DNA from: Candidatus Nanohaloarchaea archaeon | Lineage (GTDB): Archaea > Nanohalarchaeota > Nanosalinia > Nanosalinales > Nanosalinaceae | DNA length: 64,000 nt | Assembly: GCA_013343275.1 (NCBI GenBank) | Contig: CP046106.1 | Span: 672,001 to 736,000 of the forward strand | Reading direction: 5' to 3' | Part shown: positions 32,436 to 52,784 of the stretch, in pieces | How the letters are laid out: each line of letters opens with the position of its first letter | Numbering within the stretch: position 1 is the first letter of the stretch | Notes under the pieces: generated by a model | Seen by the model: the letters and a program-made list of their open reading frames with translations, nothing else | What the model was told of the DNA's origin: nothing | Databases searched by the model: none | Made by a program: the position numbers and the translations under genes

Positions 32436-33197
32436 ATGAGGATTGAAAACAGCTTTATTCTCGCACCCGGAGTAGGAGAGAAGACTGAGAAGAAACTCTG
32501 GAAAAAAGGAATAACACACTGGGACCATATAGAGAATACTAACGAAGTAAGCAGCCGGAAACAGGAAAAAATATCCAGCTTTGTACAGAAGGCCCGGAAA
32601 AACCTTGAAGTAGAGAACTCAGTGTTCTTCCAGGAAAACCTCCCTAACAAAAGCCTCTGGAGACTTTACCGCAACTTCGAGGAAAAGGCCTGCTTCTTCG
32701 ATATCGAGACCACCGGCCTCGACAAGAAAAAGAACAAGGTTACAACCGTCAGCTTCCACCGCGACGGAGATTCACGGACCTTGATACAGGGCCAGGACCT
32801 GACAAAGGAAAGACTTGAGGAAGAGATGTTCGAATCAAAGATACTTGTATCGTTCAACGGAAAACGTTTCGACCAGCCGTTCCTCGAACAGAGCTTTGAC
32901 ATGGATATCAACGTTCCGCATATCGATCTCATGTACCTATTCAAACGTATCGGCTACTCCGGCGGCCTGAAAAAGATCGAGAAACAGCTGGATGTTGACA
33001 GAGAGCTGGAGGATATCGATGGACGAGAAGCTGTCCGGCTCTGGAAGCAGTACGAGAATAACGGCAATCAGGAGGCACTGGATAAGCTGGTCAAGTACAA
33101 CCAGTACGATGCCAGAAACCTTGAGAGCCTTCTTGAGATAGTGCATGAGCGCTTAACGGGCGAAGTGTTTGAGCCTCACAGGCCTTCCGAACGATAG
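32436..33197 (+). CDS. RNase H-like (YprB/DnaQ-type) exonuclease with N-terminal HhH
   Basis: PGVGEKTE, FDIETTGL, FNGKRFD.PFL, HIDL, GGLKKIE, YNQYD. Confidence 0.88.
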   Translation: MRIENSFILAPGVGEKTEKKLWKKGITHWDHIENTNEVSSRKQEKISSFVQKARKNLEVENSVFFQENLPNKSLWRLYRNFEEKACFFDIETTGLDKKKNKVTTVSFHRDGDSRTLIQGQDLTKERLEEEMFESKILVSFNGKRFDQPFLEQSFDMDINVPHIDLMYLFKRIGYSGGLKKIEKQLDVDRELEDIDGREAVRLWKQYENNGNQEALDKLVKYNQYDARNLESLLEIVHERLTGEVFEPHRPSER

Positions 33198-33233
33198 ACT
33201 TAAAAACGACTGATCCCAACTTTCAGATGAAAA

Positions 33234-33580
33234 TGGCCTTGGTACAAAATACACCGGCTCCGGAAAACATGTGGATGGATTCCGTGAGCTACTGCTATAC
33301 CCATCTGACCAGGGCCAAGGCTAAATTCTCAATTATTAACTTCCTGGCAGAGTAAAGCGGGATGAAGCCTTGGCTCCTACTGGAGTCAAGCGCCGACCGC
33401 GAATACTCAAGGCTTCTGGAAAATAGGATTCCAATTCTTCTACCTCTGTGGAACATAGGGTAGAGTTTTGGAATCGGAGGTATGCTGTGCTTGCAAGGTG
33501 CAGTGTACCTCACGGTTACCTATTCAACTTACTGACTGATCAAACACAAGTCGAACCGAAAAACACAACACGCCAGGTGA
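33234..33580 (+). ncRNA. Unclassified highly structured RNA or long 5' leader
   Basis: Nested helices rich in G-U pairs (only viable on the + strand) and an H-type pseudoknot; TATA-like CTTAAAAA at ~33199. Confidence 0.6.
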
Positions 33581-33588
33581 CAACACCA

Positions 33589-33702
33589 ATGGACGCAAAC
33601 GCGCGGCATTTCGAAGTAGAACTTCAGGCCCAGCTTGAGGAAGAGGAAACTCAGGCACAGGTACATCCTGAAGCAAACGTCGTCGCAGTTCAAACTCTCT
33701 GA
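33589..33702 (+). CDS. 37-aa acidic peptide MDANARHFEVELQAQLEEEETQAQVHPEANVVAVQTL
   Basis: AGGTGA RBS 8 nt upstream; acidic host-like composition. Confidence 0.6.
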   Translation: MDANARHFEVELQAQLEEEETQAQVHPEANVVAVQTL

Positions 33703-33753
33703 GAAAGAATAATAGAGAACTTCCGCAGACCCTAGAAACCGCTCTAGCGGGAG

Positions 33754-34242
33754 CTATTCGTCTTGCTGATACGCTGCCGACTCGAATGCAGCCCAGCCAT
33801 TAGCCATAGAATCAAGTATCGAAGTAAACGAACGCGCCGGCTTCACAACCTTTCGACGGCCCTGCTTGCCCTCACGCTGGCCACGATACTCCAGGTATTC
33901 ATACTGTATAACACCAATCCTTCTCAACTTAGGCAGAATATTGTTCTTCAAGTTTGAAAGGCCTTTCTCATGACCCCATTCGCCGAAATTATTCAACTTC
34001 TCGGAGTCTATCTCTCCTTCATCCTTTAACTCGCGCAGAAATATCTTTGCGTACTTATTCCTCTTCGGAGACTGCTCCTGAGGGAAAAACAGGTCAACGA
34101 TCTTCTCCCAGTTCCATGCACGATCAGACTTCCTGTACTTCTGACTGTCGCGCGGAATAGCGATCGAGTTCTTAGTAACTATAGTAGTAGATTTACGGGC
34201 CTCTTCATCTACAAAAGGGTGCTCCTCATCATTCTCCGACAT
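33754..34242 (-). CDS. Winged-helix DNA-binding protein of unknown function
   Basis: IFLRELK...LSNLKNNILPKLRRIGVIQY...RKVV wHTH-like pattern; basic C-terminal half. Confidence 0.7.
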   Translation of the reverse strand: MSENDEEHPFVDEEARKSTTIVTKNSIAIPRDSQKYRKSDRAWNWEKIVDLFFPQEQSPKRNKYAKIFLRELKDEGEIDSEKLNNFGEWGHEKGLSNLKNNILPKLRRIGVIQYEYLEYRGQREGKQGRRKVVKPARSFTSILDSMANGWAAFESAAYQQDE

Positions 34243-52633: not shown

Positions 52634-52784
52634 GCCTCGATGGCTCAGCCTGGCTAGAGCGGTCCCCTCGTACGCCTGCCAATGCCCAGAGCGGCACGCA
52701 TCAGACCATGCTCAGCATGGCCTACAATCAAACTTGACAGGCACAGAAAGGGACAGGTCCCGGGTTCAAATCCCGGTCGGGGCT
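52634..52784 (+). tRNA. tRNA-Thr(CGU) with 76-nt intron at 37/38 (52673-52748)
   Basis: Acceptor GCCTCGA/TCGGGGC, U73; D-arm GCTC/GAGC; anticodon stem GTCCC/GGGAC with CT-CGT-A|A; T-arm CCGGG-TTCAAAT-CCCGG. Confidence 0.93.

Follow-up and report, generated by a model that had tools for sequence, protein, structure and literature searches.

This analysis concerns a structured RNA locus in the genome of a nanohaloarchaeon (Candidatus Nanohaloarchaea archaeon; here G000, a single contig, C1, of 915,886 bp), found in a window of 64,000 nucleotides (nt), G000:C1:672001-736000; positions below are those of the window unless a contig is given. The feature, which opens with a promoter-like box at 33199 on the + strand, is real and new and matches no known RNA family. 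We consider it probable that it is a dual-function RNA, namely a messenger RNA (mRNA) for small proteins which carries a conserved structure of the ribonucleoprotein (RNP) type and in which one hairpin, H2, would act in trans on the leader of rpo7, the gene of the RNA polymerase stalk subunit Rpo7. According to this proposal a single + strand transcription unit would start a few bases before a first open reading frame (ORF1), behind a conserved TATA box, and would run in the order ORF1 (folded as helix P1 and hairpin H1), kink-turn (K-turn) hairpin, H2, H3 and a second open reading frame (ORF2).

The locus is a strongly structured RNA with covarying helices that falls outside every Rfam family. 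Folded as + strand RNA, 33199-33590 reaches -135.3 kcal/mol, far outside the range of 100 dinucleotide shuffles (-99.1 +/- 5.5 kcal/mol; z -6.54, 0/100 as good), and it folds much better than the - strand of the same stretch (z -3.10). An earlier note on this DNA had proposed such a + strand RNA and had named shuffled controls, a comparison with Rfam and covariation in relatives as its checks; for a conserved, structured + strand RNA, though not for every helix drawn, all three came out in its favour. For the last of these, a syntenic alignment of 20 loci and an extended set of 25 sequences or genomes including G000 were used. Over P1, H1 and the K-turn hairpin (30 pairs, compared with slid partners and 500 shuffles on five measures), 91.6% of the cells are paired against at most 44% with the partner slid, eleven pairs show double changes, and none of the 500 shuffles reaches any of the five measures. 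Among the 15 consensus pairs of H3, ten show double changes.

At the gathering thresholds of Rfam 15, nothing in the whole window passes except one transfer RNA (tRNA; 52634-52784), and a permissive scan of 33100-33850 returned three chance-level matches of 12-16 bits, against thresholds of 41-50. The earlier note had been unable to match the RNA to signal recognition particle (SRP) RNA, ribonuclease P (RNase P) RNA or transfer-messenger RNA (tmRNA), and rightly so: ARAGORN reported neither tRNA nor tmRNA in 32900-34000, and the first two were ruled out as identities, as both are encoded elsewhere in the G000 genome, SRP RNA with a score of 136 bits. The RNase P RNA candidate (G000:C1:875212-875594, -) scores 62.8 bits, under the cut-off of 84 for the archaeal Rfam family, which indicates a divergent RNase P RNA in this lineage.

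Within the archaea surveyed, the locus is conserved, single-copy and specific to one nanohaloarchaeal family. A blastn search with 33199-33760 found it in 23 of the 24 other genomes of its own family, in one of seven genomes of a second family and in none of nine genomes from three further families of the order. With a covariance model built from 25 sequences of the K-turn hairpin and the 3' portion of ORF1, exactly one copy was identified in 45 of the 49 other genomes of the family and a match in one of 20 genomes of the other four families of the order. This lone extra-family match, L011, comes from a 2.5-kb contig of a metagenome bin (G039:C114) and is 87% identical to the window over the core, and the Rpo7 of the same bin is only 57% identical; the contig is therefore possibly stray and may have been mis-binned in G039.

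The sequence-variable hairpin H2 (33426-33475, +) carries the candidate antisense element, UCUUCUACCUCUGUGGAACAU (33436-33456, +), which is complementary at 21 of 21 positions to the start of the rpo7 (rpoE') mRNA leader: 33436-33456 is identical to G000:C1:53864-53884 on the same DNA strand, and the rpo7 gene lies on the - strand, outside the window. The product of the target gene has SHS2_Rpb7-N and S1 domains, those of Rpo7/RpoE'. Read in the orientation of this gene, a TTTTAAAAA box starts 27 nt before the site in G000, so that the rpo7 mRNA is predicted to begin with these 21 nt. Among the 12 genomes that show the pairing, the upstream sequences of 11 were read as having a TATA-like box whose start lies 27-29 nt ahead of the target. 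When the 373-nt RNA was compared with the whole G000 genome by short-word BLAST, the rpo7 leader was the only significant second match (E 7e-5), and in a wobble-tolerant scan of the same genome the rpo7 site was the only long run free of G-U pairs. Weaker candidates for H2 in G000 lie inside coding regions spelling E-V-E-E and were set aside as composition effects. A second promoter on the - strand beside the 21-mer was also considered, from the sequence alone, and rejected, as no TATA is rightly placed there and the feature is not conserved.

The rpo7 loci of 24 relatives were then compared, taking the longest ungapped run of Watson-Crick and G-U pairs between each RNA and its own rpo7 region (-150 to +12). 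Co-varying complementarity between H2 and the rpo7 leader is present in 12 of the 25 genomes, from eight genera, with runs of 18-24 nt that always lie in H2: 21 nt in G000 and G001, 20 nt in G002, 19 nt in G003, G020 and G023, 23 nt in G005, G008, G015 and G024, 24 nt in G021 and 18 nt in G022. Within these runs every departure from exact Watson-Crick complementarity is a G-U pair, and changes on both RNAs are matched between genera, as in GUGGAACA/UGUUCCAC compared with ACAAGACA/UGUCUUGU. Both G020 and G021 differ from G000 by matched changes, the pairing sequence of G020 being wholly different. In seven of the twelve genomes the duplex covers AGAGGU, the Shine-Dalgarno region, and ends 2-9 nt before the AUG; the other five, among them G000, have a long leader, and there the target is the extreme 5' end, at a distance of 47-93 nt from the AUG. 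In 20 of the 25 genomes H2 forms a hairpin, the segments of G006, G007, G008, G017 and G024 having been cut too short to judge. Covarying complementarity at the initiation region, the mark of a trans-encoded base-pairing small RNA (sRNA), was thus found in twelve genomes and not in the remaining 13, and it suggests that in the former the RNA pairs in trans with the rpo7 leader in vivo.

A different explanation of the same match would be that the locus is a bicistronic mRNA for two micro-proteins, with a structure that stabilises the message or tunes its translation, and that the resemblance to rpo7 is shared sequence, derived from a site bound by the same protein or ribosome-related factor or from an old duplication of the leader, rather than RNA-RNA pairing. 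Such a mRNA would agree with the conservation of both ORFs, with the lack of complementarity in 13 of 25 genomes and with the 3' arm of H2, which resembles the rpo7 leader in sense and could be a leader mimic. This sense-like arm is, however, imperfect, whereas the antisense arm is perfect (21/21); the departures are all G-U, which is meaningful only for RNA duplexes, and the matched changes in eight genera fall on a target at the predicted mRNA 5' end and at the Shine-Dalgarno sequence. On balance we regard shared sequence without pairing as unlikely.

If H2 does pair, then in about half of the genomes examined its 5' arm and loop would serve as an antisense element of 18-24 nt directed at the beginning of the rpo7 mRNA. 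A duplex lying over the Shine-Dalgarno sequence and ending 2-9 nt before the AUG would block ribosome binding and lower Rpo7 synthesis, and repression of translation initiation is the likely outcome wherever that sequence is covered. In the genomes with long leaders the RNA would bind the extreme 5' end and cause the leader to refold, with an effect that could be of either sign; within such a leader the target site is able to form cis pairs with either the Shine-Dalgarno or the anti-Shine-Dalgarno region. Regarding the leader itself (G000:C1:53802-53890; L023/L024), an insertion of about 55-70 nt was observed in the genus of G000 and in two others, located between the old Shine-Dalgarno-like element CAGAGGUAGAAGA, which is the antisense target, and the rpo7 AUG. 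This insertion brings a second Shine-Dalgarno sequence, GGAGGUAG, and the predicted leader structure joins the 5' element to CCUCUG and UGGAG beside it.

The coding half of the proposal starts with ORF1 (33233-33355, +; MALVQNTPAPENMWMDSVSYCYTHLTRAKAKFSIINFLAE, 40 amino acids (aa), stop TAA), which, judged by the conservation of its frame, is a small gene covering about a third of the stretch in which the earlier note had seen no credible coding sequence. It lies behind a TATA-like promoter box, CTTAAAAA (33199-33206, +), already pointed out in that note and conserved in place as an A/T box across the alignment of 20 loci, from which a transcription start at about 33227-33230 (+) is predicted. 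Counted on the sequence, the box starts 27-34 nt ahead of the two ATGs of ORF1, that at 33233 and an extra in-frame one at 33227, so that the ORF1 mRNA would be leaderless or nearly so. At the other end, a terminator scan gave one weak site at 33741-54, and shuffles give as many.

The ORF1 frame is open in all 20 aligned loci, from the conserved ATG (33233) to a stop in one alignment column (33353-55), and by script in 24 of the 25 loci, with 35-41 aa after trimming of upstream in-frame ATGs; in the 25th, that of G014, a divergent ORF was read by eye. The stop of the 24 open ORFs varies between TAA (18), TAG (4) and TGA (2) and is never replaced by a sense codon. Three segments between conserved anchors take seven, six and eight length values, all of which differ by multiples of three (24/24), indicating selection on the reading frame. 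The peptide itself evolves fast, with mean pairwise differences of 0.291/0.338/0.366 at the three codon positions. It matches no Pfam or NCBIfam family, a word-index search among 5.8 billion called proteins returned no homologue, and AlphaFold2 predicted no fold (predicted local distance difference test score, pLDDT, 58.4). A selected reading frame within the RNA, as expected of dual-function sRNAs, emerges from the comparative data for ORF1 as well as for ORF2, and both are presumably translated.

Two helices are folded within the ORF1 coding sequence. The 5' arm of P1, GGCCUUGGU (33235-33243, +), begins with the last base (G) of the ORF1 start codon, and its 3' arm, GCCAAGGCU (33314-33322, +), lies within the KAK codons (helix 1 of alignment A1, in which columns 17-26 pair with 107-116). 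The earlier note had proposed this closing helix with the 5' arm paired to 33308-33316; its pairing with the CCAAGGC region proved to be conserved with compensatory changes, the conserved register being 33314-33322, and over the 20 loci 84% of the P1 cells are paired and two pairs show double changes. H1 (GCUCCGGAA/UUCCGUGAGC; 33257-33289, +), placed inside ORF1 by the RNAalifold consensus, likewise agrees with the hairpin first read at 33257-65/33280-89 and is conserved with compensatory changes: its two parts reach 95.5% and 93% paired cells, with three pairs showing double changes, and an extended 10-bp version reaches 80.9%. The pseudoknot arm thought to cross it (33273-78/33301-06) did not survive the comparison, as in three of its partner columns no more than 3-6 of the 20 sequences have a letter and what remains is a 3-bp UGG/CCA, each pair of which is standard in 12-17 of 20.

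A further observation regards the heptamer GCCUUGG, which occurs at the start of ORF1 (33236-33242) and again in the stem of the K-turn hairpin (33367-33373). The CCAAGGC (33315-33321) in the KAK codons, which is single or double, is a potential pairing partner for either copy, and an alternative fold competing with the K-turn hairpin is possible. Alternative folds of this kind had been suggested before; the pairing potential stands, and covariation is unable to decide on it, since all the elements involved are nearly invariant.

Contigs of relatives in RNA libraries cover the RNA of the locus. The data, taken from two RNA libraries of one study, are assembled contigs from relatives and not from G000. 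A contig from a congener (350 nt, depth 51) extends over 33242-33501 plus another 92 nt; if its sequence continues as in the G001 genome, it ends 5 nt into ORF2. The contig of another relative lies over the K-turn (252 or 155 nt, depth 265 or 445). Within 33100-33850, the exonuclease gene upstream, the body of ORF2 and the winged helix-turn-helix (wHTH) gene downstream had no contig cover, which is not evidence of absence, and RNA run X3 gave no matching contig.

The K-turn hairpin (33357-33400, +; GCGG-GAU-GA-AGCC...GCGCC-GA-CCGC) begins 2 nt past the ORF1 stop. It consists of a canonical stem (C-stem), GCGG/CCGC (33357-60/33397-400, +), paired in 20 of 20 loci, a 3-nt bulge, GAU (33361-63, +), and tandem sheared G.A/A.G pairs (33364-65 with 33395-96, +), followed by a non-canonical (NC) 12-bp stem with a UACU loop, and it thus displays each of the parts by which a K-turn is recognised. 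Throughout 25 sequences the motifs GG.AUGA and GACC, including the GA dinucleotides and the bases around them, do not vary; pairing is 100% in the C-stem and in the first two pairs of the NC-stem, and 92.5% in the distal stem. Besides G-U variants, the C-stem shows one U-A double change (pair 170/221, one sequence), and in the hairpin stem C-G is replaced by U-A at 180/214 (five sequences), 187/200 (nine) and 188/199 (six). After CCGCGAA a variable A/C-rich linker follows. A stem that the earlier note had drawn across this region (33364-72/33408-16) has 9/9 pairs only in G000, 8/9 in two others and at most 6/9 in 17 of the 20 loci.

The G000 genome encodes L7Ae (100 bits), fibrillarin and Nop5, and the hairpin, 2 nt past the ORF1 stop, would be bound by the ribosomal protein L7Ae. 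The boxes of the hairpin resemble box C (AUGAAG) and box D (CCGA) and are closed by a terminal-type stem. Two guide RNA classes were considered and ruled out: box C/D guide sRNAs, as the approximately 25 nt between the C/D-like boxes form a covarying hairpin and neither C'/D' boxes nor guide-length spacers were seen in the sequence, and H/ACA guide sRNAs, as neither a conserved lower stem nor an ACA was found 3' of the K-turn hairpin. The element is therefore best described as a K-turn, but not as a guide RNA.

It could be asked whether the locus is simply a structural or scaffold RNA of an L7Ae or box C/D-like particle, with ORF1 untranslated and ORF2 a separate gene. The K-turn near the box C/D consensus (AUGAAG...CCGA) with its terminal-type stem, the L7Ae, fibrillarin and Nop5 genes, the deep RNA-library contig and an ORF1 that has weak codon periodicity and no predicted fold would all suit a scaffold. 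An untranslated ORF1 would not explain why three of its segments vary in length by multiples of three only, why its ATG is invariant and why its stop changes only among TAA, TAG and TGA; moreover, C'/D' boxes and guide-length spacers are missing and the interior is a covarying hairpin. These points make a purely structural RNA very unlikely.

Downstream of H2, the 16-bp hairpin H3 (33477-33511, +) has a near-invariant apical part, UGCUU-GCA-AGGUG, which holds conserved G-U pairs. The earlier note had taken the G-U richness of this hairpin as a sign of selection on + strand RNA, and the comparison agrees: the G-U pairs are retained in 15-20 of the 20 sequences, columns 20/37 being G-U in 20/20, and as they would be A-C mismatches on the - strand the functional strand is the + strand.

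The last element of the proposed transcription unit is ORF2 (33577-33702, +; stop TGA 33700-02), of 37 aa from the ATG at 33589 or 41 aa from the GTG at 33577, the latter sitting inside the Shine-Dalgarno-like motif AGGUGA. First noticed as a 37-aa acidic ORF, it turned out to be a genuine gene by comparison: none of the 20 loci interrupts it (20/20 open, 37-38 aa), TGA, TAA and TAG are all used as stops, and codon-position differences of 0.363/0.200/0.561 are of the coding type and point to ordinary purifying selection on the protein. At the start site (33577-33591 and the homologous sites in L006-L022) ATG is found in 12 of 20 loci and ATC, ATA or ATT in eight; seven of these eight have an in-frame GTG three codons upstream, within the conserved AGGUG, and L018 has neither ATG nor in-frame GTG. 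A profile search of 1.84 billion representatives retrieved 40 proteins of 35-107 aa, in which the match is always C-terminal, and a word-index search two near-identical "hypothetical" proteins, none of the Pfam or NCBIfam families being matched by ORF2. AlphaFold2 predicts one helix (residues 3-22; pLDDT 68.6). In a complex prediction of Rpo7 with ORF1 and ORF2, the partner ORF2 scored 0.07 against a mark of 0.32, which is evidence neither way.

The conserved structure upstream of ORF2 had originally been read as a cis-acting riboswitch or thermometer leader, or a ribozyme, controlling the 37-aa ORF by sequestration of its ribosome-binding site (RBS). About 340 nt of conserved structure outside Rfam do precede ORF2, an RNA-library contig spans ORF1 to about the ORF2 start, and the invariant AAGGUG of H3 resembles the ORF2 RBS, as a cis leader might require. 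Comparison across loci gave this reading no support, the pairings on which it was built being confined to the genus or the genome of G000. The CCUGGC/GCCAGG pairing, the sole anti-RBS pairing examined, exists in one of 20 loci, that in which the GCCAGG hexamer occurs; the pseudoknot and the stem of the second domain are not conserved; a third of the supposed leader is a frame-conserved ORF; and no conserved junction resembling a ligand pocket was found. We therefore consider a cis-acting leader highly improbable.

Several findings weigh against the dual-function proposal. The contigs from relatives give no strand, ends or level, and carry-over of DNA is possible. Neither peptide is confidently folded, and the codon periodicity of ORF1 is weak. 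The minimum-energy fold pairs most of the antisense element within H2, leaving a 3-nt loop open in G000, and with a target 47-93 nt upstream of the AUG, direct masking of the RBS is inapplicable in five of the twelve pairing genomes. Thirteen of the 25 genomes have an equally conserved RNA with runs of at most 12 nt against the rpo7 leader; among the non-pairing genomes, no long run was found over 2-3.6 kb of the rpo7 locus in the 12 that were scanned for it, and no other target by exact and wobble loop patterns in five. These loop patterns retrieved the RNA locus itself in four of the five genomes and a few sites with 2-3 mismatches that follow no cross-genome pattern, and in six non-pairing genomes the RNAduplex energies against the rpo7 leader were within the shuffle range. 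As 13 of 25 genomes lack the pairing, antisense control of rpo7 is not the universal function of the RNA.

In a single-gene tree of Rpo7, from which G009 (a cut protein) and G039 were left out, the best tree requires three changes for the antisense group, a single origin still being compatible with the data. The core common to all genomes (ORF1, K-turn, H3 and ORF2) is without an assigned function; the small-protein RNA is therefore probably the older part, and the antisense arm an additional function or one confined to certain lineages. Non-pairing genomes (e.g. L010:1663-1681 and L014) were seen to expose a conserved pyrimidine-rich H2 loop, CCUGCCAUCUCUACACCGUGGAA, identical in two genera. 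The H2 loop of L018 contains UCACCUCCU, which we take to resemble the 3' end of 16S ribosomal RNA (rRNA).

A broader view, which we put forward only tentatively and think rather doubtful, would be that of a riboregulatory RNP of a DPANN symbiont, present throughout the family, in which an L7Ae-bound RNA with a K-turn sets the dosage of the stalk subunit Rpo7 through antisense pairing with the 5' end of its mRNA, its own translation gates its activity, and both micro-proteins belong to the same circuit. Here a leaderless ORF1 would end at the K-turn and be followed by ORF2, and the exposed H2 loop of the non-pairing genomes would address a different target. If this view were true, ribosome availability would feed back directly on the transcription machinery.

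In 19 of the 20 aligned loci, a gene for an RNase H-like exonuclease of family PF13482 lies upstream and a gene of 162 aa downstream on the opposite strand, L009 being the odd one out, as its upstream stretch fails to align. The earlier note had called these neighbours an RNase H-like exonuclease and a wHTH gene; the former assignment holds, the latter found no backing in Pfam or NCBIfam, where the 162-aa protein has no family and its best match is a Rpc31 model of RNA polymerase III at E 0.054. This convergent gene (33754-34242, -) adjoins the RNA locus in all 20 aligned loci. Elsewhere in the window, the tRNA gene that passed the Rfam thresholds (44.5 bits) has a 78-nt insertion in the anticodon region, presumably an intron.

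The comparative data alone thus yield a candidate sRNA-target pair with natural compensatory changes in eight genera, a pair that is directly testable, and they add two unannotated families of micro-proteins, one of which, ORF1, was never called as a gene among 5.8 billion proteins. They also illustrate that stretches of tiny genomes regarded as structured and non-coding can hide frame-conserved micro-ORFs. Should the regulation be true, a small RNA would be tied to the dosage of the transcription machinery in an organism of about 0.9 Mb.

Box C/D and H/ACA sRNAs and archaeal RNase P RNA are RNAs with K-turns that bind L7Ae. The present element shares with them the canonical stem, the 3-nt bulge, the tandem sheared G.A pairs, the C- and D-like boxes and the terminal stem. 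Unlike box C/D and H/ACA sRNAs, the locus lacks C'/D' boxes, guides of 10-12 nt, an ACA box and a pseudouridylation pocket, and in contrast to the class as a whole the element lies within a longer coding transcript, 2 nt past a stop codon; a K-turn right behind a stop codon is a new arrangement. To our knowledge, targets have been established for very few archaeal regulatory RNAs. A full-text literature search retrieved no description of the RNA of this locus and no sRNA acting on rpo7, nor any DPANN regulatory RNA with a known target or any that targets the mRNA of an RNA polymerase subunit.

SgrS/SgrT is a bacterial dual-function sRNA. AzuCR and SR7 are described as bacterial dual-function (coding) sRNAs (PMC8915982, PMC7834092, PMC12612679), and archaeal sRNAs are represented by sRNA162 and the spRNAs of Methanosarcina mazei (PMC3510493, 10.1101/2025.10.28.685009, PMC11456600). 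From nanohaloarchaea, a conserved intergenic sRNA of 266 nt, STRG.4577.1, has been reported from a halite metatranscriptome, the available part of the source assigning no function to it (PMC7002113). Like the present locus it is a conserved intergenic nanohaloarchaeal RNA, and it was detected as expressed; its length is shorter than the span described here, and the two may or may not be the same RNA. As far as the available descriptions go, the M. mazei RNAs are comparable in being archaeal sRNAs that pair with mRNAs encoded elsewhere or that encode small proteins; they bear no sequence or structure relation to our locus, which has no Rfam match, and they differ from it in that its predicted target is the mRNA of an RNA polymerase subunit and its evidence is comparative. 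A close parallel would be with AzuCR, SR7 and SgrS, which likewise combine in one transcript a peptide of less than 50 aa and a base-pairing region against an mRNA encoded elsewhere. Compared with these, the nanohaloarchaeal locus is archaeal (DPANN), has two conserved small ORFs instead of one, is much longer at approximately 0.35-0.5 kb, shows no Hfq-type logic, has translation and regulation that are predicted from sequence, and carries a K-turn hairpin.

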